From assembly GCA_964526305.1 (NCBI GenBank), contig CAZGKV010000003.1:3451-67450 (forward strand): DNA of 64,000 bases. Direction: 5' to 3'. The DNA comes from an uncultured Planctomycetales bacterium. Its GTDB lineage: Bacteria > Planctomycetota > MHYJ01 > JACPRB01. Under the pieces are notes generated by a model. It was not told where the DNA came from. It searched no databases and worked only from the letters and a program-made list of their open reading frames with translations. The translations under genes and the position numbers were made by a program. Below are positions 12,317 to 56,707 of the stretch, one piece after another (position 1 is the first letter of the stretch; every line of letters begins with the position of its first letter).

Positions 12317-12438
12317 TTCCTCGCGATCCTCCGTCGCTTCGATCCTTCCGTGGAACCAATCCAAGGAGTGCCCGGTAGGATCGATCTTGCGCCCTTCTCA
12401 TTCTTGGAGCTCCCCTGGAGTGCTTTCGGAAAGCGACG

Positions 12439-18662: not shown

Positions 18663-18690
18663 TCCCCAATCCTGGGGTATCCTTGGAGAC

Positions 18691-42000: not shown

Positions 42001-42174
42001 GACCTCGCCTATGCGCCCGGAGTCTCCCGGCCGACGACATTCTTCTTGCGCCGCCTCGATCTCCTCCGCCGACAGCCCCGCGATTTGCCGGGCCGCTTCG
42101 GCGAACTTTTCCACCGACGCGATTCCCCACGCGTCGGCCAGGAGGTTCCGATGGGGAGCTGGGAGCGAGACCAT
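39055..42174 (-). CDS. Ser/Thr protein kinase with TM segment and extensive C-terminal TPR array
   Basis: Start reassigned to ATG 42174 (MVSLPAPHRNLL..., homologous to the start of the 34064 paralog). The ORF track runs to 42240 and would overlap the divergent sigma gene. Kinase motifs and at least 12 TPR units. Confidence 0.85.
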   Translation of the reverse strand: MVSLPAPHRNLLADAWGIASVEKFAEAARQIAGLSAEEIEAAQEECRRPGDSGRIGEVLLRQGLLSPRHYLEILDRLHAPEEPGVRKVGRYRLLREIARGGMGIVYEADDPELKRRVALKVLRHGDAAPETVRRLHREASIAAQLRHANIVTVHEVGVAEGPEGEPTHFIAMDYIEGPTLAALMGEGRTAKPELMRMLEEVARAVGHAHEKGIVHRDLKPANVLVERGGRVMLTDFGLAKAESFVTKLTGTNELLGTPQYMAPEQAEGRVREVDARTDVHALGVMLYEILTGSLPFRGRTAVEVYTKIVREEPARPSSLNRTIARDVEIICLKAMSKEKNRRYRNATEFAEDLGRFRRGEPIRARPPSVFFLLRRKLARQPVLVAASIAALAGAFTTAVTVGQVVRRREFDRSRDSAQRAFAEGEWGRAMVECDRALGIRPDPALEGIREESRARLRTVEAEEEGRRRYLAFQGEWIPRLQAKIEKSRTMFYIPNANVRAHLEELEKALLEFESFAADPAFRSHSEVWATIGMGWYVLGDLARAEEALLEAAHRSPDDARVAAYLGRVYLDRSLIARLRDSEDPSPNSEIHKMLAQASRHFRRAIRGWEGATPIELHLARIHQSEDDQHHQNCRLAREGVETFGDAPGVEEFWVALAMLRHGSDRDPIVDLTKAVQIRPYAPWLFLFRGELYHEGGRNREALTDYGKSIEQDPRLYWAYTGRGVLHHQMGRWEEAISDFTAALHIRPGFSMAYAGRASARLERGDSIGALQDLEEALRFNPDYVPAYTKRARLRALLKDHAGAFLDATLALHRQPRNRYALAIRARTRVRLGDLRGALTDFAEAIESDPADPDLYHDAGLVRRGLGDFSGALRDFTGALRLRPSSARMWCLRAGTWKRQGNLDRTWTDANQSLAWNPRTAEAWFLRGYVRASRRDFSGALFDLNRAIEVDPSGADVAWLERAWVRMTIGDPRGALLDCNEAVNRRPRFAEGWIRRGFVWIALEEEDAARADFIRALSLDPRNRQARQALDQLNRKSGHR

Positions 42175-42220
42175 AGGATACGAATCAGTATACCTGGGTT
42201 CGGGATGATATGATTCGGAT

Positions 42221-42964
42221 GTGACGGGGCCGCTGGACACTTCGCTCGGGGGCGACGCGCGAGGATTCCCCTCGACCCACTGGAGCCTGCTGCGCGACGC
42301 CCGTAACCGCGACGCACCTGCCTACCGTCAGGCTTTGGAAGATTTGTGCCGGCGTTATTGGAAGCCCGCCTACTGCTTTGCCCGAGCCACTCGCGACCTC
42401 TCGAACGAGGAGGCGAAGGATGCGGTCCAGGAGTTCTTTGCGGAGTTGATCGAAGGGGACTTCTTTGCGCGATTCTCTCCGGAACGCGGTAGCTTTCGCG
42501 CCTATCTCAAGGGAGCGCTCACCCTCTTTCTCCTGGAGCGCCGGCGAAAGGCGGGAGCGCAGAAGCGCGGAGGCACGCGAAAGATTCTCGGCCTGGAGGA
42601 TTCCGACTTCACCCGCGCGGAGGCGGAGGCTCGCCGCGAAGGAGAATCGCCCGAGGCCGCCTTCGACCGGCAATGGGCCATGGACGCGATCGATCACGCC
42701 CTTCGCGATCTCGAGGAGGAGTACGGCCGATCGAATCGCGATTCCTGGTTCGCGGTCTTCCGCCGCTACGAGTGGGGAACGCCGGGCACCTATGCGGACT
42801 TGGCCCGAGAGTTCGGAATCGCGGAGTCGGAGGTCGGGTCCGCGCTCGCCCACGCGCGGCGGCGCTTCCGCGAGCTCTTCCTCGATCGCATCCGGGCCTA
42901 CACCGACAGCGAGGGGGAGGCCGCCACGGAATTGGCTTGGATTCTCTCGCTCCTGGGGCGATAA
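42221..42964 (+). CDS. ECF-like sigma-70 family sigma factor, Ser/Thr-kinase-associated type
   Basis: GTG start. Paralog of 25956-26669 (...LCRRYWKPAYCFARAT...EAKDAVQEFFAELIEGDF...TYADLAREFGIAESEVGSALAHARRRFRELF). Divergently adjacent to the kinase at 39055. Confidence 0.65.
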   Translation: MTGPLDTSLGGDARGFPSTHWSLLRDARNRDAPAYRQALEDLCRRYWKPAYCFARATRDLSNEEAKDAVQEFFAELIEGDFFARFSPERGSFRAYLKGALTLFLLERRRKAGAQKRGGTRKILGLEDSDFTRAEAEARREGESPEAAFDRQWAMDAIDHALRDLEEEYGRSNRDSWFAVFRRYEWGTPGTYADLAREFGIAESEVGSALAHARRRFRELFLDRIRAYTDSEGEAATELAWILSLLGR

Positions 42965-43030: not shown

Positions 43031-45514
43031 TTACCAGAATTTGAGCTTGCGGATCGCGCCGACGACTCCTCGCCGCACCGCGCTTGCGCCGCGCTTGGCG
43101 GCGTTCCAGGTCTCCGACGCCCGGTCGGCCGTCCAGGAACCCGCGGCCTTCATCCCCTGCCAAGTCGCCGCCAGGGCACGGTCGACGTAGGGGGTGATCT
43201 TTTCCGCGCCCCAGAGCATGACCGCGACCTGCGCGATCTCGAGCGCCCCGATGCCGACCCAACCTACCGGGCCGGCCGCAATGAGCGCGGGATAGACGGC
43301 TGCCCGGAGAGCGGCCTTGACGGGCATCATCGCCAGCATGGAAACCCCGAAGGACGTCGCATCCGTTGCGACGGCCCGGAGACTCTTCTGTCCGGAGGCG
43401 GCATGCATGATCGCCACTCCGGCATAGAGGGGCAGGGAGAAGCGCGTCACCGACGCCAGGGCGCCGCGCATCCCCAAGGCGGCTACGCCGCGGGTCGTGA
43501 CGTACTCGAGGCCCGCAAAAAGGCCGAACCCGCCGATGAAGGACGGTGAGAGCAGTCCCTTCGCGGCATCTCGGATACGGCCGGGATCGCCGTGCCAGAG
43601 GGCCTGCACCGTCTCCTTGAGCATCACCCCGCCGGCGAAGAATCCCATGCCGAGGGCACCGCGTCCCATCGCGCCCGCCGCCCGACCGAGCGCCGCTCGG
43701 TGGGGCTTCGCCGATGCGCCGCGGCCGTAGAGTTCCGGCCACCGGCTGCGGATCTCTTTCGCGAGCTCTGCGTCGCTTATCTTCGAAACCTCTTCGTGCC
43801 GGAATAGGGAGCGGAGTCCGGCCTTCTTGGCGAATGCGGCCTCGGCGCGGAAAGCCTCGACTTCACTTGCCGTCCGGCCGGTCTTGACGAATCCGTACGC
43901 ATGCGTGGCCTCGTGCACGAGCTCGACCGCAAGGCTCTTCGCCGAATTCTCGCGGACCAGGAAGACTTCGGCTCCCAGCGCCCCGGCCCCGCGGCTTCCG
44001 AGCTTCTTGGCATCGACCCAGTACACGCGGATTTCGCCCTGCCGTACCGCCTCGGCCAGATGGCGGGTGCCCGGACGATCGAGCCACCGGAGGACCTCGG
44101 CAAGCTTTTGGTCGGCGAAGGCGTCGGCCCGAGCGATCGGGGCACGTGTCCCCGTCCAGTTTTCCCACGTGCGACGGAGGCTGAGCCGGCGCCGGATCTT
44201 CGAAAGAAACGGCCGGTCCTTCGGACGCGAAGCCACTCCGTCGAACTCCGCCATTCCAAGTTCCTTGGCCTCGACGAGCTTGCCCTCGCCGTCGAAGAGT
44301 TCCATCTTGAAGCGGTCGTTGTAGCGCTTGTGTACTCGGCCGACCCGCACGATCCCCTCCGCCGTCTGGATCTCGGCGAGCTCGATCGTCGCTCCGTCGA
44401 CCTTGACTGTGCCCTCCGACGCGATGCGGACCTCGTACATCACGAAGGGATTGTCCAGGCCGCCCCACGTGTCTCCGCGGCCGGGCTCGTAGAAGTCCGC
44501 CACCCGGACTTGGGCCCCGACCGCCTTGAGCGGATCGGGAAAGTGGTTCCGCACGAACCGCTCGTAGGGGGTCCATTCCAATCCGAGCTCTCCGAGGAGC
44601 TTGCGGAACTCCGCCTCCGCCACCGTCGGGCTCCGAAGCGCATCGCGCTGGGCCTGAGTGAACTTGTGCGGCTCGATCGGCTTTCCCTTCGCCTCGAGGT
44701 GCTTGAGATACCGACCGAGGAAGCGCGCCTCGTCGTAGAGATCCTTCGGTCCCGACTGACCGCAGAACAACCGGACTTCGACCGTCGGCGGAGAGTCGGT
44801 CCACAAGTTCGTAAGGTTGACGTCCCGATAGCGCTGGCTGCCGAAGATCGGCTTCAGCGCGTCCAGGACGTCCTGATACTCGTACTTCCCTTTGGCCGCC
44901 GCCTTCCGGTCGATGGCCTCGATCACATCGATGAAGGCGTCCTGCTCGCCGCGTTCGAAGAGCGTCCGAGCGTTGTAGTGATCTCCCAGATCGTTGAAGA
45001 TCCCCTCGATGTAGGCCCGGTTGTGGATATCGACGAGGAGATTCCGCAGAAGAAGCGGGTTGTCCACGAAGATCTTCTTGTCGACGTGGATGTGTCCTCC
45101 GGTGCCCCACTTCGGATTGTCGGGGAGTTTCGTCTTGAGACCCACCGCCCACATCGCTTCATAGAGGGGGGTCATCTTCCGAACCACGTCGCTCAACTTC
45201 ATCGGGGGAGGCTGAACTTCGATGACTCCCGGATCCGTTCCGATGTTCCACTTCTGTCCTTCCCACTCGATCACATGGCCGTAGCCGTTATCTCTTCGCG
45301 AACCGGGCATGCGCGCCAGGAGCTCGTTGATGAGCGCGTCGCGCTTTGCCTCACGGGCCGTGCTGCTGACGCTCCAGTCGTCGCTGTAGATGTTGTCGTC
45401 CGTCGCCGTCGGTTCGAATCCGAAGATCAGAGCATCTTCCCGTACTTCCTGAGCTTGGGCGAGACCGAGGGATGCGACCGTGAGCAGGAGGATCCAAGAA
45501 GGGCGCCGCACCAT
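43031..45514 (-). CDS. large secreted protein, paralog A of a three-member family (shared C-terminal glycine-zipper-rich module; HExxH motif; N-terminal module with HIHVD motif)
   Basis: RBS AAGGAAG. Signal peptide MVRRPSWILLLTVASLGLAQAQE. HEATH in ...SLAVELVHEATHAYGF... The C-terminal ~250 aa (GAMGRGALGMGFFAGGVM..., SFIGGFGLFAGLEYV..., PVGWVGIGALEIAQVAVMLWGAEKITPYV..., ends AIRKLKFW) are conserved with paralogs B and C. Confidence 0.8.
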   Translation of the reverse strand: MVRRPSWILLLTVASLGLAQAQEVREDALIFGFEPTATDDNIYSDDWSVSSTAREAKRDALINELLARMPGSRRDNGYGHVIEWEGQKWNIGTDPGVIEVQPPPMKLSDVVRKMTPLYEAMWAVGLKTKLPDNPKWGTGGHIHVDKKIFVDNPLLLRNLLVDIHNRAYIEGIFNDLGDHYNARTLFERGEQDAFIDVIEAIDRKAAAKGKYEYQDVLDALKPIFGSQRYRDVNLTNLWTDSPPTVEVRLFCGQSGPKDLYDEARFLGRYLKHLEAKGKPIEPHKFTQAQRDALRSPTVAEAEFRKLLGELGLEWTPYERFVRNHFPDPLKAVGAQVRVADFYEPGRGDTWGGLDNPFVMYEVRIASEGTVKVDGATIELAEIQTAEGIVRVGRVHKRYNDRFKMELFDGEGKLVEAKELGMAEFDGVASRPKDRPFLSKIRRRLSLRRTWENWTGTRAPIARADAFADQKLAEVLRWLDRPGTRHLAEAVRQGEIRVYWVDAKKLGSRGAGALGAEVFLVRENSAKSLAVELVHEATHAYGFVKTGRTASEVEAFRAEAAFAKKAGLRSLFRHEEVSKISDAELAKEIRSRWPELYGRGASAKPHRAALGRAAGAMGRGALGMGFFAGGVMLKETVQALWHGDPGRIRDAAKGLLSPSFIGGFGLFAGLEYVTTRGVAALGMRGALASVTRFSLPLYAGVAIMHAASGQKSLRAVATDATSFGVSMLAMMPVKAALRAAVYPALIAAGPVGWVGIGALEIAQVAVMLWGAEKITPYVDRALAATWQGMKAAGSWTADRASETWNAAKRGASAVRRGVVGAIRKLKFW

Positions 45515-45577
45515 GGCTTTCTTCCTTGAGTTCTAGGCCAAGAGGACCGACCACCACACCTGCCGGTGCCCAGGGTA

Positions 45578-45594
45578 TTGCAACCGCCGTGCCA
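45578..45594 (-). promoter_or_regulatory. sigma-54 (-24/-12) promoter for paralog A
   Basis: Minus-strand sequence CTGGCACGGCGGTTGCAA, i.e. TGGCACG-N4-TTGCA, a full consensus match with correct GG/GC spacing. Lies about 54 nt upstream of the ATG of paralog A. Confidence 0.6.
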
Positions 45595-45702
45595 GGGACC
45601 GCCCGAGGGAAGCGCCTTCCGAAAACGCCCGCTTTCGGCCATCGTTGCCCGCCTCCGGGCGGCCGCCATGGCGCAATGCGTCACGCCGAAGGGAAACCGA
45701 AG

Positions 45703-45718
45703 TGGCACACCCGTTGCA
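45703..45718 (+). promoter_or_regulatory. sigma-54 (-24/-12) promoter for the 45795-52055 operon
   Basis: TGGCACACCCGTTGCA, i.e. TGGCAC-N5-TTGCA with GG and GC at consensus spacing. About 65 nt upstream of RBS/ATG 45795. Arranged divergently from the minus-strand promoter. Confidence 0.6.
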
Positions 45719-45794
45719 TTACCCCCGCTGCCCCCGGTTCCGGTGTCGTGGTGGTGCACGCCGCGGGGGAGTGGTGGATTGAGGAGAACGCCCC

Positions 45795-46688
45795 ATGTCC
45801 CGCGAACACGTATGGAAGTTCGGATGGATCGCCCCTGCTTTGCTCTTGGTCCTCCTGGCCGCACTGCTCTTGCGCCCCACGCAGGATTCCAAGGAACCCA
45901 AGCCGCGGAGCGCGACTTCGAAGATGCAGGTCCAGGAGACGACGCCTTCTCTGGAGAATCACGCTTCGCGGAACCCGGCATCCACGGAGCGGAAGCAGCC
46001 GCGACTTCGCGCCGAGGACACGGAAGAAGAGGATGAGTTGGAAGTCCACGAGAGGAGCGCCGCGGACGTCATCGCGGCCGATCCCTTGAAGTCCTCCCTC
46101 AAGACGGCTCTGACGCGGTTCGCCTCCCTTAAGTCCTACAGCTACTTGATCTCCGTGACGGTCTACGAGAACGGAAAGCCGATCCTCGAAACCAAGTCGG
46201 GCGGACAGGTAAAGGACCAGCAGATCGTGATGGGACTCACGGAAGTCCAGGGGGAAGTCTTCGAGGTGGCGAGCCGCGGTGCCGAATCGCGGATCCGCAG
46301 ACCGGGGGAGGAGTGGAGCGAGGCTGAGAACGGATGGTACGAGGCGGGAGAGGTCGACCCGCGGGCCGCCGAGATGGCCGAGGCGTGGGCCGATCCCGTC
46401 CTCGCATCCATGCCGCTCCGATCCGCCCCGACCGAAAACGTCGGCGGAGTGGACTGCAGCGCGATGACGCTCAATCTCGAAGGCGCGCTGCCGGGCGACG
46501 AGAACGTGAAGTCCGGCTCGGGCGCGAGCGCCGTCACCTTCGTCGTCGATCCCGACGGTCAGATCCGCCGGTGGCGACTGACGATGGAGATGAACCAGGA
46601 CGGAAAGAAAATGAAGACCGTCGCGGAGGCGGACTTCTCGGGTTTCGATGCTCCTTGGACCGTTCCTCTTCCGGAGTGGATGCAATGA
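45795..46688 (+). CDS. N-terminally membrane-anchored hypothetical protein, translationally coupled to paralog B
   Basis: RBS GAGGAG. TM helix WIAPALLLVLLAALLL followed by an acidic, low-complexity region and a ~180-aa C-terminal domain. Stop overlaps the start of the next gene (ATGA). Confidence 0.6.
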   Translation: MSREHVWKFGWIAPALLLVLLAALLLRPTQDSKEPKPRSATSKMQVQETTPSLENHASRNPASTERKQPRLRAEDTEEEDELEVHERSAADVIAADPLKSSLKTALTRFASLKSYSYLISVTVYENGKPILETKSGGQVKDQQIVMGLTEVQGEVFEVASRGAESRIRRPGEEWSEAENGWYEAGEVDPRAAEMAEAWADPVLASMPLRSAPTENVGGVDCSAMTLNLEGALPGDENVKSGSGASAVTFVVDPDGQIRRWRLTMEMNQDGKKMKTVAEADFSGFDAPWTVPLPEWMQ

Positions 46689-49528
46689 AACGCTGGACGC
46701 TTCTCTTCTGGCTGGTCCTCGCGGTCCCCGCGACCGCGCAGGACATCGAGAATCCGGAGTACCTGCGCCGAGCCGCGTGGGGATTGGCGAAGCAGAACCG
46801 GGCCAAGTCGCTCTACCTCTTCCTCGAGAACCAGTTCCCGACCTTTACGGGACTCGCGGAGGCGGCCGGACTTCCCGAGGCGCTGGACGGCGGGCTCTCG
46901 CTTCCGTCGTTCCGGAAGAGCTTCCACCAGAAGTTGAAGTCCTATAAGCCTTCCTCCGACCAACCCTCGGCCAAGGCGATGAAGGCGCTCTTCGACGCGC
47001 TCCACGGAGTCCTGACCGTCTTCCCGCTCCAGCCCCCGGCGCCCGGGGAGTCCGTCCGAGCGCTCGTACAGAACCGCGGCCCCCCGGAGGCGCTCCTCGA
47101 AAAGTTCTACAACGTCAGCGAGACCTATCTTGCGGGCTGGGACAAGCTCAAGACGATCTCGGTCAAGTCCGTTCCGGGAGAACTCGTGTGGTTCAACCCC
47201 GATCTCGCGATCCCCGAACTCGGGATCAAACCCGGCGTTCCTCTCACGGACGCGCAAAAGGCCCTCGTCCTGAAGTTCTTCTCGGTGCGGGTCACGAACG
47301 ACGCCGCCGCGAAGATCGGCGAAGCCTCCTATCCCTCCGATGTCGGACGCGCGGTGAACCCCCGCTCGGGCGTGCTCACGATCGTCGACGGCAACGACGG
47401 CAAGCTTCTCCCCGACCTCACCCTCAAGGGCACCGGAAGCAATTCGGATCCGGCCTCGACCTCCGAATGGTCGGGCAAGCTCGACGTCGGGGAAGCGATC
47501 TTCGACTCCGAGGTCTCTCTCTCCTTGATGCGAGAAGGGGTTCGAATCTACACGCCCGTGGCCGTCATCGCGGATCCGGCGAACCCCGCCAAGGGAGTCT
47601 CCGTCCGGGCCTCGATGACCTTCCTTCGCCATAGCCACATCTTGACGAACGGCTGGGGAAGCGTCACGCCGGAGGATGCGAAATTCCTCATCGAGAAGAT
47701 CCGGCAGAACGCGACCCTCGCCGAGGGACAGGAATTCGATCTGCGGGAATGGGCGAAGGACGTTCTCCCGAGGCTCGCGGGCCGAAACGCAGGGCTGATG
47801 TCGGGCCTCGGAGTCCGGCACGGCTCGGCGACCGACAGCAACATCGGCGTAGGCGAGCAAGTGGACTTCGGCGAGCCTTCCCTGGGAAACAAGCCATCGG
47901 AATCGCAAAAGGACTGGCACTGGAAGGCGCTCGAAAACATCACGAACGCGGCGAATCTCTCTCTTCCGGAAGGACAGAAGATCGACCTCGCCGCCTCCAA
48001 GGTCCTCTTCGAGGCCGAATTCTCCTCCTCGGTCGCTCGGGTCATCGACGAGGGGCTGCGACTCCGCGTCGGCGCCGAAAACCTCTCCCTCATGGACGAG
48101 TCCCACCGGAAGCGGTTGTACGAGGGGTACCTCGAGTCGCTCCGAGACTTGTCCGAGGCTCAGCTGCGGCAGGAAGTGGTCCGGCTGGGGCTCGAGAAGG
48201 TCGCCGTCGCCAAGACCCTCACGGCGGATCAGGCGCGTACGAAGATCCGGGACGCCTTCCGGAACGCGGACGTCTCGAAGCTCGAGCCCCTGCTCCGGCT
48301 TCTCGGGGTCGCGGAGTTCCGCGCCCGCGAGCTGGCCCTTCGGGGCGAGCCCCTCGCCAAGCTCCGCACGATGGCGCGGGATCGCGGGATCCGGAGTCCG
48401 GAAGGGCTCAACCGTTCTCAGCTCGCGCGGGAGATCGCCCTCTGGGGAGGAGCGGTTTCGCGACCGCGTTCGAACGAGCCGGAGCTCACGCGCCGGCTAC
48501 AGGGGGCCCTGAATTCCGCGATGCGGGCCGCCGACGGGATGGACCCCGCGCGGCGCGGCACGCGCGTCGAAGCGACGCTTCGCCGGCTCATGGCGGCGGA
48601 ACCCGGACTCTACTTCAACGTGAAGATCGCCGAACTCAACGGAAAGCGATTCGTATACGAGATCGGCGGACGGCGCGCGCTCCTCCCCGGAGGTCGCGTC
48701 ATCGCGGAGGCGGACGTTCTGAGACTGAAGCCCGGCCTGGCCCTGGAACTCGGGGCGGAGTTCGATTCCGCCAAGGTCGATCTCGCCTGGGAGATCAAGA
48801 GCTCGAGGCGGCCGATGCGTCCCTCGCAGGGAGAGCTCTATCGCTCCGTCTTCGGCCGCGCCCCGATCGAGATGCATCCGACGGAAGTTGCGGCCCGGCC
48901 GCGGGGCCGAAGTTCGGCTCGAGCGGCGATCGGTCAAGGAGCGGTCGGTCTCGGCATCTTTGCGGCCGGCTTCCTCGTGAAGGAAGCGGTTCAGGGGCTC
49001 GCCTCGGGCGACACCCAGCGGATCCGGAACGCGTTCCGTCACCTGAAGTCCCCCTGGTTCGCCGGGGGATTCGCGGTCTTTAGCGGCGTGGAATGGGCGG
49101 CGTCGAAGGCCTTGGGGGGGGCGAAAGGAGCGTGGGGCGCAGTCGGGCGCTTCGCGCTGCCCATCTACGCCGGCGTTTCGATTCTGCACCTCGTCCAGGG
49201 GAAGCGCGACCTCAAGTCGATCGCGACGGAGGCGACCTCCTTCGCCGTCTCCGCCCTGGCGATGCAGCCGGTGATGCACGCCATCCGCGGCGCGCTCTAT
49301 CCGGCCCTGGCCGCGGCCCCGCCGTGGGGCTGGGTCGGCATCGGTGCGATCGAGATCGCCAACGCCGCCGTGATGCTCTTCGGCGCGGAGAAGATCTCTC
49401 CGTATGTCGATCAGGCGCTCACGGCGACATGGAACGGAGCGAAAGCCGGTACCGCCTGGGTCAAGAAGGGCGCGACCGCTGTGGGACATAGGGTGATGGC
49501 CTCGGTTTCAAGACTCAAGTTTTGGTGA
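46685..49528 (+). CDS. large secreted protein, paralog B (shared C-terminal module; HExxH position degenerated to GAEFD; contains Rho-N-like helix-hairpin segment)
   Basis: Start taken at ATG 46685 (signal peptide MKRWTLLFWLVLAVPATAQD); the ORF track begins at 46334 inside the previous gene. C-terminal ...GQGAVGLGIFAAGFLVKEAVQG...PPWGWVGIGAIEIANAAVML...VSRLKFW. Where A and C have HEATH, B has ...LALELGAEFDSA... Confidence 0.8.
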   Translation: MKRWTLLFWLVLAVPATAQDIENPEYLRRAAWGLAKQNRAKSLYLFLENQFPTFTGLAEAAGLPEALDGGLSLPSFRKSFHQKLKSYKPSSDQPSAKAMKALFDALHGVLTVFPLQPPAPGESVRALVQNRGPPEALLEKFYNVSETYLAGWDKLKTISVKSVPGELVWFNPDLAIPELGIKPGVPLTDAQKALVLKFFSVRVTNDAAAKIGEASYPSDVGRAVNPRSGVLTIVDGNDGKLLPDLTLKGTGSNSDPASTSEWSGKLDVGEAIFDSEVSLSLMREGVRIYTPVAVIADPANPAKGVSVRASMTFLRHSHILTNGWGSVTPEDAKFLIEKIRQNATLAEGQEFDLREWAKDVLPRLAGRNAGLMSGLGVRHGSATDSNIGVGEQVDFGEPSLGNKPSESQKDWHWKALENITNAANLSLPEGQKIDLAASKVLFEAEFSSSVARVIDEGLRLRVGAENLSLMDESHRKRLYEGYLESLRDLSEAQLRQEVVRLGLEKVAVAKTLTADQARTKIRDAFRNADVSKLEPLLRLLGVAEFRARELALRGEPLAKLRTMARDRGIRSPEGLNRSQLAREIALWGGAVSRPRSNEPELTRRLQGALNSAMRAADGMDPARRGTRVEATLRRLMAAEPGLYFNVKIAELNGKRFVYEIGGRRALLPGGRVIAEADVLRLKPGLALELGAEFDSAKVDLAWEIKSSRRPMRPSQGELYRSVFGRAPIEMHPTEVAARPRGRSSARAAIGQGAVGLGIFAAGFLVKEAVQGLASGDTQRIRNAFRHLKSPWFAGGFAVFSGVEWAASKALGGAKGAWGAVGRFALPIYAGVSILHLVQGKRDLKSIATEATSFAVSALAMQPVMHAIRGALYPALAAAPPWGWVGIGAIEIANAAVMLFGAEKISPYVDQALTATWNGAKAGTAWVKKGATAVGHRVMASVSRLKFW

Positions 49529-49532
49529 TGCG

Positions 49533-52055
49533 ATGATGCTGAAGCTGCTCTTGGCGTTTCTGATCTCCACGGACCATCCGATCCTCTCGGACGCCCATCT
49601 GGAGGCGCTGATCCAGAACTACGGTCAGTCGATCCCGATCAAGACCGCCGAGGGATTGGGCGAGGCGCTCTACTGGGCGAACCTCGTCCAGAAGGACGCG
49701 ACGACCGTCGAGGTCACCGACAAGCTGATTCGGGACGTCGTGGCCGTCCGCCGATTTCACCAGCGCGCGCGCTACAACGTCGGCGACCGGCTGATCGTGC
49801 GCGCTTCGGAAGGGGGACTGTCCCCGCGCGCGGAGATCGCGACGGTGAATCCGGACGGGACGTACGACGTCATCGTGTGGGATAAGCTGAAGTCGTTCCT
49901 CCTTCCCAATACCAGCGCCGACGCCACCCGGGCGATGATCGACGAGGCGACGGGCGAGCTGGCCAAGCCGGGGAAGACGCAGGTCGAGGTCACCGACCCG
50001 GTAACCGGCGTGAAAAAGAAGGTTTGGATGGAGCGGCCGTGGCTGGAGCGTCCGAATCTTCGAACGGTCAAGATGACCCATACGGAGATCGCGGCGCTCA
50101 ACGGGCCGCCCAACATCGCGTTCCGCCAGCGGTACAACGTCTATGGCTACATCGTGGACGCCTTCACCCCCGGCTACGATCCGGTGCTCGAAAAGCGCCT
50201 CGCCAAGGCGGTGAAGGTCCTCGACCAGATGGTAGCGAAGGGCGAGCTCGACCTTCGCTGGCCGGAGAATCCCGCCGAGCAGCCGAAGTTCATGGAAAAG
50301 CTCCTCCGGGCCCAGCGGAAGCTCATCCGCACCGTGTGGTCCCAGAACGAGATGTCCTACCTCCGCGGGGACGAGGCCAGCAAGCGCTGGAACGAGGCGA
50401 TGTCCGATCCGACGCTCAAGGAGGGGTACTCGCACAAAGTCGGAGCTCAGCTCAAGGCGCGCGTCGGGGTTTGCAGCGATCAGACCGCCGGCATTACGTC
50501 GGTGCTTCGGGAAATCGGCCGTCGAGCGGGCTTCGAGATCCGTCCCGTGAGCGGCCGCACGCTCGACGGGGGAGGCCACGCCTTCGCCGTAATCCGGCTG
50601 GCGGACGGCAAGCTGCATCTGATCGATCCGTCCTGGCATTCGGTCTCGAGCCACACGAAGAACATCGCGTTGGAGTCGATCGATTTCGCGACCTTCGACA
50701 AGCGTTGGTGGTCCAACCGAGACCTCGGCTCCTTCGTCGAGACGTCGGTGGAGACGCCGCGGAAGGCCGGTCGCGGATTTACCGACACGCAAGATGCGCT
50801 CTTCCGCGCCACGGCCAAGAAGGGCCTGGGCGACGTCGCGGCTCGCCCGATCGAGCGGACGTGGATGGAAGAGATGCTGGAGCGGTACGAGGTCTACGAG
50901 CCCGCGGAGCCGAATGCGGTCCGCTGGCGCCGAGTGCCGGAATACGCCGTCTGGGCCGAGCCGATCACGGATTCGAAGATCGGCGAAGCGGTGGACATCA
51001 TGCGGGAACATGGCGCCGGCAAGTTGGCCGATCTGATCCTCCGCGGGGACATTCGGGTGTACTGGGTCGAGCCGCGAAGCCTGGGTTCGGCGGGGGCGAT
51101 CACCGACGGCCGGTTCATCTACGTGACTCGCGGGGCGACGGGCAAGAAGCTCGCCCTCGAGCTCGTCCACGAGGCGACGCATGCCGAAGGATTCCTCCGT
51201 ACGGGCCGTCCGGCGTCCGAGGTACAGGCCTTCCGCGCCGAGGCGGCGTTCGCCCAACGGGCCGGCGTGAAGTCCGTGTTCCGTCACGACAAGATTTCCC
51301 GGATGAGCGACGCCGAACTGGCGCGGGAGATCGAGCGGCGCTGGCCCGATCTGTACACGTCGGCCCGCGAGGGAGTTCCCGCCCGCGGTCACCGGGCTCG
51401 CATCGCAAGCGCCGCGAAGACCGTCGGTCGCGGGGCCATGGGCGCCGGGATCTTCGCCGCAGGGTTCCTCGTCAAGGAGACGATCCAGGGGATCTGGCAC
51501 GGAGACTGGGGCCGCATCAAGAGCGCGGTCCATGAGCTCAAGAGCCCGTGGTTCCTGGGCGGTTTCGCCGTCTTCAGCGGAGTGGAGTACGCCTCGGCGA
51601 AGATGCTCTCCGGAACCAAGGGGATGTGGGGCTCCGTCGGTCGCTTCGCCCTGCCGCTCTATGCGGGCGTCGCCCTCCTCCAGCTCGCCCAAGGCAAGCG
51701 CGACCTGAAGTCGATCGCGACGGAAGCGACGTCCTTCGCCGCTTCCGCCCTCGCGATGATGCCCGTGATGAACGCGATCCGGGGATCGCTCTATCCGGCC
51801 TTGGCCGCGGCTCCGCCGTGGGGCTGGGTCGGCATCGGCGCGATCGAAATCGCCAACGCGGCCGTGATGCTGTGGGGCGCCGAGAAAATGGCCCCCTACG
51901 TCGATAAGGCGATCACCGCGACCGTGAGCGCGACCAAGAAGGCCGCCTCGTGGGTCGCCGAAAAGGCTACGGGAGTCTGGCACGACACCGTGAGCGGATT
52001 CAACTCGGTGCGTCGCGGCGCGGTTTCGATGGCGCGGCGCCTCAAGTTCTGGTAA
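49533..52055 (+). CDS. large protein, paralog C (transglutaminase-like Cys/His/Asp module, HExxH motif, shared C-terminal module)
   Basis: Starts 5 nt after the stop of paralog B. GVCSDQTAGITSVLREIGRRAGFEIRPVSG...GGGHAFAVIRLADGKLHLIDPSW fits the transglutaminase-core/papain-like C...H...D signature. LELVHEATHAEGF. C-terminal ...GRGAMGAGIFAAGFLVKETIQG...PPWGWVGIGAIEIANAAVML...ARRLKFW. Confidence 0.8.
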   Translation: MMLKLLLAFLISTDHPILSDAHLEALIQNYGQSIPIKTAEGLGEALYWANLVQKDATTVEVTDKLIRDVVAVRRFHQRARYNVGDRLIVRASEGGLSPRAEIATVNPDGTYDVIVWDKLKSFLLPNTSADATRAMIDEATGELAKPGKTQVEVTDPVTGVKKKVWMERPWLERPNLRTVKMTHTEIAALNGPPNIAFRQRYNVYGYIVDAFTPGYDPVLEKRLAKAVKVLDQMVAKGELDLRWPENPAEQPKFMEKLLRAQRKLIRTVWSQNEMSYLRGDEASKRWNEAMSDPTLKEGYSHKVGAQLKARVGVCSDQTAGITSVLREIGRRAGFEIRPVSGRTLDGGGHAFAVIRLADGKLHLIDPSWHSVSSHTKNIALESIDFATFDKRWWSNRDLGSFVETSVETPRKAGRGFTDTQDALFRATAKKGLGDVAARPIERTWMEEMLERYEVYEPAEPNAVRWRRVPEYAVWAEPITDSKIGEAVDIMREHGAGKLADLILRGDIRVYWVEPRSLGSAGAITDGRFIYVTRGATGKKLALELVHEATHAEGFLRTGRPASEVQAFRAEAAFAQRAGVKSVFRHDKISRMSDAELAREIERRWPDLYTSAREGVPARGHRARIASAAKTVGRGAMGAGIFAAGFLVKETIQGIWHGDWGRIKSAVHELKSPWFLGGFAVFSGVEYASAKMLSGTKGMWGSVGRFALPLYAGVALLQLAQGKRDLKSIATEATSFAASALAMMPVMNAIRGSLYPALAAAPPWGWVGIGAIEIANAAVMLWGAEKMAPYVDKAITATVSATKKAASWVAEKATGVWHDTVSGFNSVRRGAVSMARRLKFW

Positions 52056-52110: not shown

Positions 52111-53589
52111 TTATTCGGGGCCGACGATCCCGTACTTCTCCATGCGCCGGCCGAAGGCTTTGCGGTCCAGGTTGAGGGAGCGCGCGGCCTTGGAGACGTT
52201 GCCTCCGGCCGCCGCGAGCGCATCTTGGATGCGCTTCCGCTCGAGCCCCTCGACCTCGCCGGGGAGACCGGCCTCCGGAACGTCGCGCCGGAGGACCCGG
52301 GGAGAGATCGCGTCGACGGAGAGGACGTCTCCGCAGAGAAGCGCCGCGCGCTTGAGTTCGTTCACCAGCTCGCGTACGTTCCCCGGCCACGGATAGGCCG
52401 CCAGCGTTCGCAAGGCCGCCTCCTCCACTCGAGGGGGTTTGCGACCGATGCTTTGGCACACCCTCCCGAGATGGTGTTCCACGAGTCGCGGCAGGTCCTC
52501 GAGGCGCCGGCGGAGCGGCGGCAGCTCGAGATGGATGACGTTCAGGCGGTGGAAGAGATCTTCGCGGAACTCTCCCTCGCGAATCATCGATTCCAGATCC
52601 TGATTCGTCGCGCTCACGATCCGGACGTCGACGCGGATGGGTCCGCGCCCGCCGACGGGGCGGATCTGTTGGTCCTCCAGGACCCGCAGGAGCTTGGCCT
52701 GCATCCCCGCGCTCATGTTCTCGACCTCGTCGAGAAAGAGCGTGCCGCCGTCCGTGATCTCGAAGAGCCCCTTCTTGTCCCCCGCCGCGCCGGTGAAGGC
52801 GCCTTTGACGTGGCCGAAGAGCTCGGATTCGAGGAGCGTCTCGTTGAACTCCGCGCAATTGACCGCGAGGAATGGGCCGTCGCGGCGCGGGCTGTGGAGA
52901 TGGATTTCCCGCGCGGTGAGTTCCTTCCCCGAACCGGTCTCTCCCTGGATCAGGACGGGGAAGTCGACCTGAGCGACGCGTTCGATCATCGCAAAGACCT
53001 GGCGCATCGCGGGCGAGGCGCCGACCATCGAGCCCATGCCGTGTTCGATTTCGCGGCGGGTTTCCCGGAGCTGTTCCGAGAGCGCGGCGACGCGGTTCTT
53101 GAGCTCCCATCTCTCGACGGCCGCGGCGAAGGGGGTGCGAGCGCGGGTGGCGAAGGCGACGCAGAGATCGAGGTCTTCGGAGAAAAAGCGCGCCCGATCC
53201 GCGGAGACGTCGAGGTAGATCACTCCCGCGGGGCCGGGGATCGGAACGCACAGAAGCGACTTGGCGTCCATGGACTGGATGCTCTGCCGATCGCGGAGAA
53301 GGGCCTCCTCGTGCGTGTCCGCGATGAGAGCCGGGCGGCCCGATTCCAAGACCTGCTCGACCACGCCGAAACTGATGCGGAGGGTCTCCCCCGCCAGGAG
53401 CGCCGGATCGATGGAGCGCGAGGCCACGAAGCGAGGGGCCCGGGCGGGATCGACGAGGATCATGAAGCCCCGTTCGGCCCGGACGGCGCTCACCAATTCC
53501 CCCAGAGCGGCGTCGAGCATCCGTTCCGGTTCGGGCCCCGCCTCGAGCATTCGGTCCAGGACTCCGAGGAGTCGGTCGCGAAGCTCCAT
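52111..53589 (-). CDS. sigma-54-dependent transcriptional activator (bEBP) with N-terminal GAF-like sensor, AAA+ sigma-54-interaction domain and C-terminal Fis-type HTH
   Basis: Start chosen at MELRDRLL (ATG 53589); the ORF track extends further, to 53766. Walker A GETGSGKE; GAFTGA sigma-54 contact motif; ESELFGH; arginine-finger region; C-terminal ...GNVSKAARSLNLDRKAFGRRMEKYGI. Confidence 0.8.
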   Translation of the reverse strand: MELRDRLLGVLDRMLEAGPEPERMLDAALGELVSAVRAERGFMILVDPARAPRFVASRSIDPALLAGETLRISFGVVEQVLESGRPALIADTHEEALLRDRQSIQSMDAKSLLCVPIPGPAGVIYLDVSADRARFFSEDLDLCVAFATRARTPFAAAVERWELKNRVAALSEQLRETRREIEHGMGSMVGASPAMRQVFAMIERVAQVDFPVLIQGETGSGKELTAREIHLHSPRRDGPFLAVNCAEFNETLLESELFGHVKGAFTGAAGDKKGLFEITDGGTLFLDEVENMSAGMQAKLLRVLEDQQIRPVGGRGPIRVDVRIVSATNQDLESMIREGEFREDLFHRLNVIHLELPPLRRRLEDLPRLVEHHLGRVCQSIGRKPPRVEEAALRTLAAYPWPGNVRELVNELKRAALLCGDVLSVDAISPRVLRRDVPEAGLPGEVEGLERKRIQDALAAAGGNVSKAARSLNLDRKAFGRRMEKYGIVGPE

Positions 53590-53725
53590 GGGGGTCGGAT
53601 CATAGCACCGGCCTCCGAGCCGCGCCACCCATAGAAGGCCCATATGGGGACCCATACGTCCGTACACTTTTGCATTGACACGGCCCGCGACGTTGGCACA
53701 ATAGCCTCCCCTCGGAGGGAATCGG

Positions 53726-56707
53726 ATGGACGGGAAAGCCCTGGGACAGCTCGCCCTCGTTCGCAAGGGCGTCGGACACGACCAGCTCCGCGAGGCGCTG
53801 GAGACCCAGTCGCGCTCCGTCCCGCGCCGCCCCCTCGGCCAAATCCTGGTCGAGAGCGGCTACCTCACCGCCTCGGATCTCGAGGACCTCCTTCGCGCTC
53901 AATCGAAACTCCGCCAGAGTCGCGAGGAGCGGTTCGGGGAGGTTGCGGTGCAGATGGGGTTCCTCACCCCGGAACGCCTGGAGCCCGCCTTGGAGGAGTG
54001 GCGTCGCCTGGTGGCCTCCGGCGCGCCCGTACAGCTCGGCCAGTTCCTTCTCCGCAGAGGATTGCTCACGCTGGACCAACTCCTCGAGGTCCTCCAGCGA
54101 CAAAAGCGCGTCATCATGCGCTGTCCTCGGTGCGCGCGCAAATTCACCGTCCCCACGGGCAAGAAGGGGCCGACCTGTCTGGGCTGTCAGACTCCCCTCT
54201 CGATGCTCCTGGAGGTTACGGATCCCGGGGCGGAGCTGCGCCGCTCGAAGCAGGAGGACTCCGGAGGTCTCAAGCGGCTCGGGAAGTACCAGATCCTGGC
54301 TCCGCTGGGTCAAGGAGCCAAGGGGATGGTCTTCAAAGCGCGGGATCCGGAGCTGGAGCGGATCGTCGCCGTCAAGGTCCTCAAGCAACTCGAGGGCGCT
54401 CGGCCCGACCAGGTCCAACGCTTCGTTCGCGAGGCGCGATTGGCGGGAAAGCTCCGCCATCCGAACATCGTGCGCGTCCACGACATCGGCTCCGACGGCC
54501 CTCTGCACTTCTTCGCCATGGATTTCGTGCCGGGCTCCGCTCTCGACGCCGTCCTGAAACGCAAGCCGCTGGGGATTCGCCGCTCCGCCGAGCTCGTGGC
54601 CAAGGTGGCGGAGGCGGTCCACTACGCCCATTCGGAAGGAATCGTCCATCGCGACCTCAAACCCGGGAACATCATGCTCGACGACAAGGACGAGCCCGTC
54701 GTAATGGACTTCGGACTGGCCAAATTGCTGACGGGATCCGACGTCCTCACCAAGACGGGCGCGGCGATGGGGACGCCGTACTACATGTCGCCCGAGCAGG
54801 CCCGCGGACGAGGCCGGGCCGTCGACGCCCGGAGTGACGTCTTCGCGCTCGGGGTGATCCTGTATGAATGCGTCGCGCGACGTCTGCCTTTCTTGGGCGA
54901 GAGCGTCGCCGAGATCGCGACCAAGATCGCGCAAGAGGATCCGCCCGCTCCGCGGTCGTTCGTGGCGCAAATTCCGCGGGATCTGGAATGGATCATCCTC
55001 AAGGCCCTGGAAAAAGAGCCCGAGCGCCGCTTCCAAAGCGCCCAGGAGCTCGCCGAGGATCTCCGGCGCTTCCTCGAGGGCGAGGCCGTCCGCGCTCGCC
55101 CCACCGGAATCTTCTACCGGATGCGCAAGATGGCTCGGCGGCGAGAGGCGCGCGTGGCCGCTCTCGTCCTCGCCTTTTCGACGGTATTGGCGGCGACGGC
55201 GGTGGCGGTTTCCCGCCCCTCCGCGCGCGATGCCCGCGCCGTCCCTCTGAGCCCGGCGTCCGGCTCCCACCTGGCCGAACGGCAGCGAAAGGTCGATGGA
55301 ACTCTCTACGCCCTCTGGGAAGAGGCGCGTTCGTATCTCCACGGAATCTATACCGCTCGAGAACTCTCCGATACGGAGCTCGCGCAGTTCCGGACGCGCC
55401 TCGCCGCCTACCGGGACCGATTCCGCGACTCCGGAGCCCTCGATCCGGACGGAGGCACCACGCTGGCGAAATACTTCCGAGCCCGGCTCCATCTCGAGAC
55501 GATGGAACACGACCGCGCCTTGGCCGAGCTCGAGGAGGCGATCCGGATCGAATCCTCCCGGAGCGGTCCGAATCTCGGCCTCTACTATCTCTTGCAGGCG
55601 AACGTCTACATGGAGCTCCAGATCTGGGTCCTGGGCGAGGACGGGGAGCGGGCGCTTCTCCTCGAGAAGGCGCGCGAATCCCTGGCTCGAGCCCGGGGAC
55701 ACGCCGTACCGAGCGAGGAGGAGGATACCGCGGCCTTGGCGACGGCCATTCAGGAGGCGACCGAGGGTCGATACGGCGCGGCGGTGGAGCGCCTCACGAA
55801 ACTGTACGAATCGCGCCGCAGGCCCGAGTTTCTGTGGGCCGTGGGGGCCGTTCACTTCACGGCGGCGGTGGCGAATCGCGACACCCTTCCGGTCCACCTT
55901 GAGCGCGCGATTCAGGCCCAGGAGCAGCTCCTGGCCACGATGCCGCACTATGCCAAGGCCCGTCTCGCGCGCGCCCACGCCCAGGTGCTCGCCATGCGCG
56001 GGACTCCCGCGATCCAGGACGCGACCGCCGCGATTCGTCTCCTTCCCGGCGTGTCCGACGGTTATCTCGTGCGGGCGACGGCGCTTTCTCTCGCCGGTCG
56101 CGCCGAAGAGGCGCTCGCGGATTGCGAGAAGGCGCTCGCCCTCGATTCGCGCGACGATTACGCCTACATGCAGCGCTCGACCGCGCTCGTCATGCTCGGT
56201 CGACTCGAAGAAGCGCAGCGCGACGCGGCCAAGGCGATCGAGCTTCATCCCGAAGGGGTGGAAGGCTACGTCGCCCGTGGGACGATTTATCTCCTGGAAG
56301 GGCGTATGGAGGAGGCCGAGAAGGACATCGAGGTCGTCTTCCGGCGAAGTCCCGGCAGCGTCAACGCCCACACGATGGGCGTCACCCTCACCATGATGCG
56401 AGGCCACTTCGACGAGGCGGAGAAGCGCTGCGACGAGTGGCTCCGGGCCGATCCCCATTCCCCGCTCGCCTACGGCCTGCGGGCGATGATCTACTATCGC
56501 CAGAATCGGCAGGAGAATGCGCTCAAGGACGCGGAACACGCGATCGCCCTATCGGAGGAAACCCCTCACGCGCGGCTCGTCCGCGGCCTCATCGCGTTCG
56601 AGCGGGGGGACTTCCGCACCGCGCGCAACGATCTCACCTTCTGCAAGGCTTATCCCCAGTTCCAGGAGATCGTGAAGGACGTGCTCCCGAAACTTCCCAC
56701 GCCGTAG
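53726..56707 (+). CDS. Ser/Thr protein kinase with N-terminal region, zinc ribbon, TM segment and C-terminal TPR array
   Basis: RBS GGAGGG. CPRCARKF...CLGCQ; kinase motifs (GQGAKGMVFKA, HRDLKPGN, DFG, SPE); TM helix VAALVLAFSTVLAATAVAV; TPR units. Confidence 0.85.
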   Translation: MDGKALGQLALVRKGVGHDQLREALETQSRSVPRRPLGQILVESGYLTASDLEDLLRAQSKLRQSREERFGEVAVQMGFLTPERLEPALEEWRRLVASGAPVQLGQFLLRRGLLTLDQLLEVLQRQKRVIMRCPRCARKFTVPTGKKGPTCLGCQTPLSMLLEVTDPGAELRRSKQEDSGGLKRLGKYQILAPLGQGAKGMVFKARDPELERIVAVKVLKQLEGARPDQVQRFVREARLAGKLRHPNIVRVHDIGSDGPLHFFAMDFVPGSALDAVLKRKPLGIRRSAELVAKVAEAVHYAHSEGIVHRDLKPGNIMLDDKDEPVVMDFGLAKLLTGSDVLTKTGAAMGTPYYMSPEQARGRGRAVDARSDVFALGVILYECVARRLPFLGESVAEIATKIAQEDPPAPRSFVAQIPRDLEWIILKALEKEPERRFQSAQELAEDLRRFLEGEAVRARPTGIFYRMRKMARRREARVAALVLAFSTVLAATAVAVSRPSARDARAVPLSPASGSHLAERQRKVDGTLYALWEEARSYLHGIYTARELSDTELAQFRTRLAAYRDRFRDSGALDPDGGTTLAKYFRARLHLETMEHDRALAELEEAIRIESSRSGPNLGLYYLLQANVYMELQIWVLGEDGERALLLEKARESLARARGHAVPSEEEDTAALATAIQEATEGRYGAAVERLTKLYESRRRPEFLWAVGAVHFTAAVANRDTLPVHLERAIQAQEQLLATMPHYAKARLARAHAQVLAMRGTPAIQDATAAIRLLPGVSDGYLVRATALSLAGRAEEALADCEKALALDSRDDYAYMQRSTALVMLGRLEEAQRDAAKAIELHPEGVEGYVARGTIYLLEGRMEEAEKDIEVVFRRSPGSVNAHTMGVTLTMMRGHFDEAEKRCDEWLRADPHSPLAYGLRAMIYYRQNRQENALKDAEHAIALSEETPHARLVRGLIAFERGDFRTARNDLTFCKAYPQFQEIVKDVLPKLPTP

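Follow-up and report, generated by a model that had tools for sequence, protein, structure and literature searches.

In a 64-kb window (64,000 nucleotides of DNA from an uncultured Planctomycetales bacterium), three genes, here called A, B and C, encode large proteins that carry a common C-terminal region, hereafter the tail, behind N-terminal regions, the heads, of different kinds. Gene A lies on the minus strand, and the genes p297, B and C run in the opposite direction, with C starting 4 nt past the stop codon of B; the genes downstream of A and of C are convergent regulators (Table 1). The positions and strands at which an original prediction, made from the sequence without database searches, had placed the three open reading frames (ORFs) agree with the ORF list and with an independent gene caller, which predicted A, p297, B and C also on the source contig Ga0212128_10000056 (JGI metagenome 3300022563). 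The B protein is counted from MKRW, the called gene not being the longer ORF that opens at 46334. The four genes are present too in metagenome 3300025157, from a warm spring at Beatty, Nevada (PMC10811736).

The shared region occurs in exactly three copies in the window, as determined by tblastn of each protein against it, and the alignments obtained in this way span 408 aa between A and C (49% identity), 305 aa between B and C (53%), and 249 aa between A and B (49%). The tails are the 205 to 225 C-terminal residues, with cores that are 53 to 71% identical, B and C being the closest pair at 71%, and all three proteins finish in LKFW, so that both the common C-terminal module and the common terminal motif that had been predicted are confirmed. 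The same holds for the unrelated N termini, given that BLAST within the window detected no mutual similarity among the heads, which comprise the N-terminal 430 to 650 residues. The observation of a shared C-terminal region on three proteins is real and far beyond chance, and A, B and C are not simple duplicates of one another. Two outcomes had been named beforehand as adverse to it, namely, assignment of the tail to a housekeeping family with uniform N termini and recent duplication without module swapping, and neither occurred.

The tail is a genuine conserved domain, so far undescribed, of a rare family restricted to the Planctomycetota lineage. It was not recognised by Pfam, NCBIfam, PHROGs, PADLOC or PDB sequences, and the fold search of its model was also without a match, which is in keeping with the earlier impression that the module belongs to no known family; a phage or defence origin was rejected because PHROGs and PADLOC were empty. 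No significant PDB sequence match was obtained for the tail, for the heads of A and C, for the B linker or for p297. In an exhaustive hidden Markov model (HMM) profile search with the shared region over 1.84 billion cluster representatives, 72 proteins were retrieved at E <=1e-3 and 37 at <=1e-10, and two scans of 185,579 GTDB species representatives found zero members. All the members that carry a source name come from Planctomycetota metagenome-assembled genomes (MAGs), with locus tags beginning with HYY16_ or QF645_. A word-indexed homology search returned nothing for a single tail sequence and two matches for the profile, probably on account of low-complexity words. In the 102 family proteins examined, the tail is C-terminal without exception, and the variable module is N-terminal.

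The conserved core of the tail, of about 165 aa, contains in succession FAAAYLLKE, PxFWGxLAVF, ALPLAAGMAAVQ, YPxLFAAGPPGW and KLAVTLYxGEKL. The tails of most relatives close with a short REGVxQKLxxxG motif, and those of the subfamily found in the window have a Lys/Arg-rich amphipathic extension with an aromatic end (LKFW, WKKW or WPF). The structure model obtained with AlphaFold2 (AF2) for the C-terminal region consists of helices throughout (residues 3 to 40, 44 to 54, 57 to 77, 83 to 104, 110 to 144 and 148 to 224; predicted local distance difference test [pLDDT] score of 86.5, predicted template modelling [pTM] score of 0.59), with no beta-barrel, the alternative that had been raised by the original prediction. 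No internal duplication was detected in the tail with hhalign. The possibility that the C-terminal Phe-Trp is the beta-signal of an outer-membrane protein (OMP) was rejected, the domain being helical and most relatives ending in the REGVxQKLxxxG-type motif.

As for its physical character, the tail is indeed rich in Gly and Ala (30 to 34% G+A), but its description as glycine-zipper rich is a compositional impression, given that, in six tails compared with their composition-preserving shuffles, the observed (G/A/S)xxx(G/A/S) ladders were about as frequent as the shuffle means or somewhat rarer, in no tail significantly more frequent, with p values of 0.38 to 0.99 to reach the observed counts. 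The suggestion of a pore-forming module did not fare better, since the tail shows no such enrichment and matches no pore-forming fold; in particular, a colicin-like or other known pore-forming helical domain was discarded because the tail model has no fold similarity to any solved pore-forming domain. The maxima of the Kyte-Doolittle scale over 19 residues are 1.6 to 1.8, and no 19-residue window is under about +2.9 kcal/mol on the position-independent Hessa scale in eight tails (the three of the window and five of relatives). The maximum Eisenberg <H> is 0.67, with a low hydrophobic moment, and the last approximately 20 residues are cationic and strongly amphipathic (muH of 0.5 to 0.58). Thus, the tail is membrane-like by composition and does not look like a set of stop-transfer transmembrane (TM) helices; by the crude Hessa and Kyte-Doolittle calculations, it contains no helix hydrophobic enough for Sec stop-transfer, as a classical multi-pass TM anchor would. 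Such a profile suits domains that cross the Sec translocon and join membranes later.

Table 1. Genes, protein modules and promoter motifs at the A/p297-B-C locus (positions in the window; residue numbers refer to the encoded proteins)
Feature	Position	Strand	Description
Gene A	43031..45514	-	827 aa; predicted Sec signal, amidoligase-like head, zincin module, helical tail; ORF, independent gene call and alignments
A tail	43034..43705	-	helical Ala/Gly-rich domain; cationic amphipathic C terminus ending in RKLKFW
A zincin module	43706..44113	-	H534 E535 H538 ... E551
A head core	44756..45256	-	weakly amidoligase-like; FGFEP, VIEVQPPP, GGHIHVD, TVEVR
A signal peptide (predicted)	45452..45514	-	MVRRPSWILLLTVASLGLAQA/Q (slash, cleavage site); n-h-c region and AxA site by inspection, hydrophobic N terminus scored
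Sigma-54 promoter facing A (predicted)	45580..45594	-	TGGCACGGCGGTTGC; about 66 nt upstream of A ATG; perfect match, inverted-repeat arm
Sigma-54 promoter facing p297-B-C (predicted)	45703..45717	+	TGGCACACCCGTTGC; about 78 nt upstream of p297 ATG
p297	45795..46688	+	297-aa protein with N-terminal membrane anchor; stop overlaps B start by 4 nt
Gene B	46685..49528	+	947 aa; predicted Sec signal, SelO-like head, HeH (helix-extended-helix)-like repeats, degenerate zincin module, tail
B SelO-like core	47132..47974	+	kinase-fold AMPylase type; LKGTG 247-251, HGSATDSN 379-386, DFG 394-396
B degenerate zincin module	48512..48910	+	VYEIGG at 657-662 in place of VHEATH; from alignment
B tail	48911..49525	+	71% identical to C tail
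Gene C	49533..52055	+	840 aa; short signal-like N terminus, Cys-His-Asp head, zincin module, tail
C head triad region	50466..50636	+	Cys314 in GVCSDQ, His349 in GGGHAF, Asp365 in LIDPSW
C zincin module	50970..51386	+	H546 E547 H550 ... E563
C tail	51387..52052	+	six helices in AlphaFold model; no structural neighbour
Enhancer-binding protein	52111..53766	-	GAF, sigma-54 AAA+ and HTH_8 domains; convergent with C; Pfam Sigma54_activat 4.7e-70; independent call of 510 aa

The heads joined to this tail are highly diverse, in that 81 family heads fall into at least 25 clusters that BLAST does not link, which answers in the affirmative the question of whether homologues bear other N-terminal heads. 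The predicted arrangement of variable enzymatic heads on a constant tail, with shuffled modules, therefore stands, whereas membership in the polymorphic toxins does not, the polarity being inverted and immunity genes lacking. The heads identified by Pfam include TGase_elicitor, GMC oxidoreductase, isoamylase (CBM48 and alpha-amylase), CAP, peptidase M28, GT5 glycogen/starch synthase, GH77 4-alpha-glucanotransferase, TreT-type GT4, SelO and NTP_transf_2. At least four of the significantly matched families, SelO, NTP_transf_2 (Pol-beta-type nucleotidyltransferase), GT5 and TreT, are predicted to need ATP or nucleoside diphosphate (NDP)-sugars, neither of which, to our knowledge, is expected in a Gram-negative periplasm. 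An amidoligase-like head, with matches below threshold, would be a fifth type of this kind.

The head of A is the one with this weak resemblance, its matches to Pfam DUF2126 (E=1.4e-3) and Amidoligase_2 (E=0.043) both being below the cut-off, as is that of the head of its relative P0003 to Amidoligase_2 (E=0.011). No PDB sequence match was found for it; its W-E and HxH motifs are conserved in the head of another relative, P0021.

The profile of B-type heads matches the SelO/YdiU sequences of PDB entries 6k20, 6iii and 9jym at E values of about 2e-7 (best 1.8e-7), from KGxG through HG..DN..D(F/Y)G, which is the signature of this AMPylase-UMPylase family, and the related head P0032 passes the Pfam SelO model (PF02696) at 5e-20, with B alone having no Pfam match. 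Residues H379, G380, N386 and D394 are invariant in B-type heads. In particular, B retains K249, N386 and the DFG Asp D394, with the catalytic-loop Asp displaced by one residue (TDSN versus TDN). Different from known SelO proteins, which are cytosolic or mitochondrial, B is predicted to be exported and is fused to a zincin remnant and to the tail. The Rho-N-like segment that had been proposed for B finds neither Pfam nor PDB-sequence support; by eye, residues 480 to 640 (window positions about 48120 to 48600) contain SAP/Rho-N-like, helix-extended-helix-like repeats of the form L..L.k..G(I/V)...L...I, which Pfam and PDB sequence searches did not recognise. Repeats of the same type occur in the C-terminal part of the head encoded at L004:4010-6469, and in B-type proteins they sit between the SelO-like core and the tail.

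In the head of C, the predicted Cys314/His349/Asp365 signature proved invariant over nine homologous heads (C and eight others), which supports a putative triad of the papain/transglutaminase type. The Pfam Transglut_core match is at E=0.11 only, and the head profile matches no PDB sequence.

Between head and tail, a module of about 135 aa directly precedes the tail in 16 of the 102 family proteins, A and C among them. Invariant in the aligned modules are H-E-x-x-H and a Glu located 13 residues further on, with an Arg conserved almost throughout, and the HEATH sequence described for A and C is present at residues 534 to 538 and 546 to 550, respectively. The AlphaFold model of the module (pLDDT of 92.8, pTM of 0.87) shows a sheet of three strands, then the HExxH helix and the Glu helix, and it matches zincin folds, so that HExxH and the third ligand occur on a zincin fold. 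Weak matches to eCIS_core/DUF4157, SprT and Zincin_1 were found: Pfam eCIS_core (DUF4157, PF13699) matches two of 13 modules, with a best E value of 1.7e-5 and, for P0021, 22.1 bits against a cut-off of 22, and it matches neither the module of A nor that of C. This middle module thus resembles DUF4157/eCIS_core and other minimal zincins in its HExxH with a downstream Glu and in its small alpha/beta zincin fold. Furthermore, as with pre-toxin peptidases, it sits between modules of secreted multidomain proteins. The placement between head and tail in A and C recalls the releasing peptidases of polymorphic toxins, cleavage itself being a prediction.

The loss of HExxH in B was correctly noted, but the residues at the HEATH position are VYEIGG and not GAEFD, which is found at residues 690 to 694, about 30 residues downstream, in an insertion. 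The B module is probably catalytically dead, because both His residues are lost. A similar degenerate sequence was noticed by eye, unaligned, in the fragment P0020. A further arrangement occurs in P0007 (773 aa, from a Logan assembly), where two consecutive zincin modules (HEGLH and HEGVH) stand ahead of one tail.

The family appears to be exported. Of 69 members that appear to be full length (selected by length and start codon), 61 have a hydrophobic stretch at the N terminus, the sole export criterion that was scored. For A and B, the Sec signals that had been called clear are supported by inspection, with n-h-c regions and AxA sites followed by Gln, and the N terminus of C, MMLKLLLAFLISTD, is also short, hydrophobic and signal-like, of a type common in this lineage. 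Two forms of signal can be distinguished by eye, namely, the classical n-h-c form ending in AxA before Gln and a second one, M(M)xLLLLLxLQ[DE], which is very short; in many members, the signal closes with AxA before Gln or with LLLQ before Asp or Glu. This second form, to which a Pro is added in its longer notation (M(M)xLLLLLxLQ[DE]P), has nearly no charged n-region and a Gln at the likely +1 position, and it is found also on non-family proteins of the same genomes (examples at L009:6677, L009:12847, L010:11441, L006:7405 and L005:5075-5773 on the minus strand, and in the window at C, 49533).

A metagenome scan recovered 14 related loci, where the tail genes form codirectional tandem arrays (four genes in L006, at least eight on contig Ga0187892_10003699 and three in L010), with starts and stops that often overlap by 4 nt; in the same way, HYY16_08655 and HYY16_08660 are adjacent. 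No immunity-sized small genes lie between the array members, either at the related loci or between B and C, where the gap is 4 nt. The gene p297 is predicted to be translationally coupled to B by the ATGA in which the two overlap. For p297, no homologue was detected outside the source organism and no match in Pfam, NCBIfam, PHROGs, PADLOC or PDB, and it was set aside as a family-linked chaperone or immunity protein, having no conserved counterpart at the other tail-gene loci.

The tails cluster by genome and not by head type, as seen in B and C, whose 71% identical tails are borne by unrelated heads. Comparing C with P0039, which has no zincin module, the heads are 56% identical and the tails 36%. 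The tails of P0039, P0036 and P0045 are 64 to 69% identical despite different heads, that of P0036 being SelO-like and those of P0039 and P0045 being of the C type but resembling each other at only about 27%; the contigs with P0036 and P0045 come from the sibling metagenomes Ga0187892 and Ga0187893. The within-genome homogenisation may reflect gene conversion or coevolution with a shared partner. A-type heads, in turn, are found with a zincin module and an LKFW tail (A and P0003), directly with a REGV-type tail (P0078), or with no tail (P0079 and P0080). At locus L020, from another organism (ENA ERZ27256924, k141_1945549; GC content of 61%), an M28-peptidase protein (1187-3313) lies beside the A-type protein P0079 (3337-4929), with no tail on either, and both have in common an N-terminal region, unrelated to the rest of the family and about 85 aa long, that opens with MGxxS.G.SGGG, a start (MGxxxS) that we take to resemble the eukaryotic N-myristoylation motif. 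Since M28 and amidoligase-like heads are here coupled to another shared module, and since tail contexts vary, heads and tails are independent, shuffled modules.

The A-like protein P0003, with a head 54% and a tail 72% identical to those of A, is a singleton (L021, Ga0212128_10000252, positions 10001-12427) in the metagenome that also contains the window. Around it are encoded a PIN/PhdYeFM toxin-antitoxin pair, a pair of C39-peptidase ABC exporters together with HlyD-like partners, a number of small ORFs, a tail-fibre-like protein of 852 aa and a Peptidase_C70 (AvrRpt2-like) protein.

The A/p297 intergenic region, of 280 bp, holds the only two perfect matches to TGGCAC-N5-TTGC in the 64 kb, against 0.01 expected from shuffles. 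These sigma-54 cores stand back to back at a distance of 108 nt and form the two arms of a 22-nt inverted repeat. Promoters of the -24 GG/-12 GC type with the correct spacing and an adjacent enhancer-binding protein, as in a sigma-54 operon, are both present, actual dependence on sigma-54 being predicted, and the arrangement would represent a sigma-54 divergon under conditional control. The GAF-domain activator is, by its adjacency, a candidate regulator of both promoters. Sigma-54 control was rejected as a family-wide feature, no motif being found ahead of a tail gene at the related loci or around P0003; one perfect match occurs at L013, downstream of its tail genes.

Considering these data as a whole, we tentatively propose, with a confidence that stays somewhat below even, that A, B and C represent a rare Planctomycetota family of Sec-exported modular enzymes, in which the tail is a membrane-targeting or insertion module that delivers the heads. 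Each protein is built, in order, of a predicted signal peptide, an interchangeable catalytic head, an optional zincin metallopeptidase and the constant, all-helical and marginally hydrophobic tail. Since its hydrophobicity is too weak for arrest in the translocon of the Sec system, the tail would exit the cytoplasm with the head and then bind to or insert into a membrane outside the cytoplasm. The head would in this way be placed on a target membrane or taken across it, with the membrane of another cell or of a separate compartment as the most likely target. The zincin module, intact in A and C and dead in B, may then cut the head free, like the releasing peptidases of polymorphic toxins, and the two sigma-54 promoters could switch on A and p297-B-C together, with the neighbouring GAF-domain activator as the probable regulator. 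A target other than the producer's own periplasm is suggested because SelO-type, amidoligase-like, nucleotidyltransferase and NDP-sugar glycosyltransferase heads need substrates unexpected there, and an effector role is still plausible, in that several heads depend on ATP or NDP-sugars and nevertheless bear export signals. Within this proposal, the architecture, the distribution of the family, the absence of known homologues, the promoter motifs and the conservation of catalytic residues are observed, and export, activity at membranes, release by proteolysis, the place of action and the link from regulator to promoters are inferred.

Known systems offer partial parallels. In polymorphic toxins, an N-terminal trafficking domain precedes a variable C-terminal toxin domain, and a cognate immunity gene lies directly downstream (Zhang, Aravind et al. 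2012, PMC3482391). Like them, the present proteins are modular and predicted to be secreted, with one constant trafficking-type module on many alternative enzymatic modules, a peptidase module in between in some members, tandem arrays and module shuffling (PMC3482391); different from them, the constant part is C-terminal and the variable part N-terminal, export would rely on an ordinary Sec signal, neither immunity genes nor orphan cassettes lie next to the genes, and the heads include enzymes of glycogen metabolism. The C-terminal domains (CTDs) of the type IX secretion system (T9SS), the beta-domains of type V autotransporters, dockerins and PEP-CTERM-type tags share with the family the Sec signal, the variable head and a constant C-terminal module borne by many proteins of one genome and more similar within than between genomes. 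However, the tail is 165 to 230 aa long, all-helical and Ala/Gly-rich, unlike a beta-sandwich, a beta-barrel, a Ca-binding dockerin or a single TM tag, it has no sequence or fold homology to any of these, and no sortase-like or secretion partner was identified for it; a C-terminal domain of the autotransporter, T9SS-CTD or OMP type was ruled out by the all-helical AF2 model and the lack of a Pfam match. Single-chain AB toxins, with the diphtheria T domain, the colicin pore-forming domain or the HN domain of botulinum neurotoxin (BoNT), combine an enzyme moiety with a marginally hydrophobic helical insertion domain. Likewise, the tail of the family may stay soluble while it is exported and could enter a target membrane afterwards, and proteolytic separation is plausible. 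Finally, Chlamydiae, which belong to the Planctomycetes-Verrucomicrobia-Chlamydiae (PVC) superphylum, reportedly send glycogen synthase, debranching and related enzymes out of the bacterial cytoplasm to work in another compartment (Gehre et al. 2016), with the difference that those enzymes bear type III signals and no common C-terminal domain, and here Sec-type signals and a shared tail are found.

Several points weigh against the delivery of heads by the tail. A Sec signal alone reaches the periplasm only, and no dedicated outer-membrane or target-cell delivery machinery was found linked to the genes A, B and C. A VgrG-like spike gene (16452-18662, plus strand; Phage_GPD 1.8e-59) followed by a gene for tetratricopeptide repeats (TPR) and an M23 peptidase (18610-19923, plus strand) looks like an orphan spike-effector pair of a type VI secretion system (T6SS) or extracellular contractile injection system (eCIS), and it lies about 25 kb away with no connection to the paralogues, T6SS cargo having no Sec signals. 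The glycogen synthase, isoamylase, GH77 and TreT heads resemble housekeeping enzymes and not effectors, and gene conversion between the paralogues of a tandem array could by itself account for the similarity of tails within a genome. The calculations of hydrophobicity were of a crude, position-independent type, the AF2 tail model has a pTM of only 0.59, with a 77-residue terminal helix that may be an artefact, and export we infer from sequence. No sigma-54 motif was found before the tail genes at the related loci or around P0003.

A bolder form of the proposal, which we regard as rather unlikely, makes the tail the hallmark of a new delivery or sorting route, by which nucleotide-dependent enzymes of the cytoplasmic type, such as AMPylase, amidoligase, nucleotidyltransferase and glycogen synthase, would leave through Sec with a self-contained helical domain, pass into or across a second membrane and be released by the zincin; the second membrane could be that of a prey cell, of a host cell or of a planctomycete-specific compartment.

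The simpler of the two competing readings is an anchor or sorting tag, a lineage-specific tail that would hold exported enzymes on the producer's own envelope (periplasmic face of the cytoplasmic membrane, outer membrane or cell surface), with the heads being an ordinary set of exo- or periplasmic enzymes and with a logic like that of T9SS CTDs, autotransporter beta-domains and dockerins. We regard this as quite possible, if doubtful. An N-terminal signal with a C-terminal hydrophobic domain is the simplest layout of an anchor, but no tail helix is as hydrophobic as a stop-transfer TM segment. The M28, CAP, GMC oxidoreductase, isoamylase and GH77 heads are common among exported or polymer-processing enzymes, whereas the four significant head types that need ATP or NDP-sugars are unexpected in the periplasm. 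Head types and partial gene order recur across related genomes, as in a conserved toolkit and not in hypervariable weapons, and immunity genes are absent, both of which speak for an anchor; the zincin between head and tail, on the other hand, suggests release over permanent anchoring. Genome-specific tail similarity would fit coevolution with one shared partner, but no candidate sorting enzyme or receptor gene is conserved beside the arrays. We therefore prefer membrane targeting or delivery to simple anchoring as the role of the tail, and we lean to delivery because of the weak hydrophobicity, the nucleotide-needing heads, the peptidase at the head/tail junction, the N-terminal module of L020 and the weak DUF4157 affinity.

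Improbable in our view is that the tails bind each other or a scaffold, in the manner of dockerins in a cellulosome, or target a planctomycete-specific compartment or granule, and so colocalise enzymes, including those of alpha-glucan metabolism. Planctomycetota have elaborate endomembranes, the tail is found on glycogen synthase, isoamylase, GH77 and TreT, the tails within a genome are 53 to 71% identical whatever the head, and the arrays are predicted to be cotranscribed, all of which would suit an assembly of this kind. However, no scaffold-like partner gene was seen, the SelO, papain-like, M28 and CAP heads form no obvious pathway, and the tail is more membrane-like in composition than a soluble interaction domain, with neither an internal repeat nor a known interaction fold found in it.

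We give very little credit to a classical toxin, in which the tail itself would be pore forming or bacteriocin-like or the genes would be a polymorphic toxin-immunity system for interbacterial competition: its marginally hydrophobic Ala/Gly-rich helices recall colicin and diphtheria-toxin-T-type domains, the zincin module is weakly related to DUF4157/eCIS_core and the genes are in tandem arrays, but the polarity is inverted compared to that of polymorphic toxins, genes of immunity size are found neither between the copies nor after them, GxxxG is not enriched, PADLOC and PHROGs are empty, more than 25 large enzymatic heads are hard to explain with a constant toxic tail, and the presence of glycogen-metabolism enzymes among the heads makes it fit poorly.

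A constant module on variable exported enzymes is of a familiar kind, which cannot be said of the tail module, of its fold or of the export of cytoplasm-type enzymes. If its role is in membrane targeting or translocation, the tail would represent a new domain family, possibly with a new fold, and a new bacterial way to couple many enzymes to one delivery device in a phylum with a debated cell biology. About 100 uncharacterised exported enzymes, including a secreted SelO-like AMPylase, would then become one coherent system, and secreted glycogen-metabolism enzymes would parallel chlamydial biology within the PVC superphylum. Should the tail mark a new route, this would imply either a novel AB-toxin-like effector architecture or ATP/NDP-sugar chemistry, including alpha-glucan synthesis, outside the planctomycetal cytoplasm. 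The head-zincin-tail cassette would also be compact and testable for protein-delivery engineering. Even as a lineage-specific anchor, the tail would fill a blank among the domains of the databases and explain a block of the hypothetical proteins of Planctomycetota MAGs.

The rest of the window is rich in Ser/Thr kinases fused to TPR, WD40, FGE-sulfatase or SecDF-P1-head domains and in Kelch and RCC1 repeat proteins (9707-12316, 14480-16378, 22613-25912, 34064-37183, 39055-42240 and 53726-56707; also 3265-5799 and 31742-33985), a signalling repertoire that is consistent with Planctomycetota. PHB_acc_N and phasin-like genes, for proteins of polyhydroxyalkanoate granules, lie a few kilobases to the right of the cluster, at about 57.7 to 58.6 kb (L001 20989-21877).

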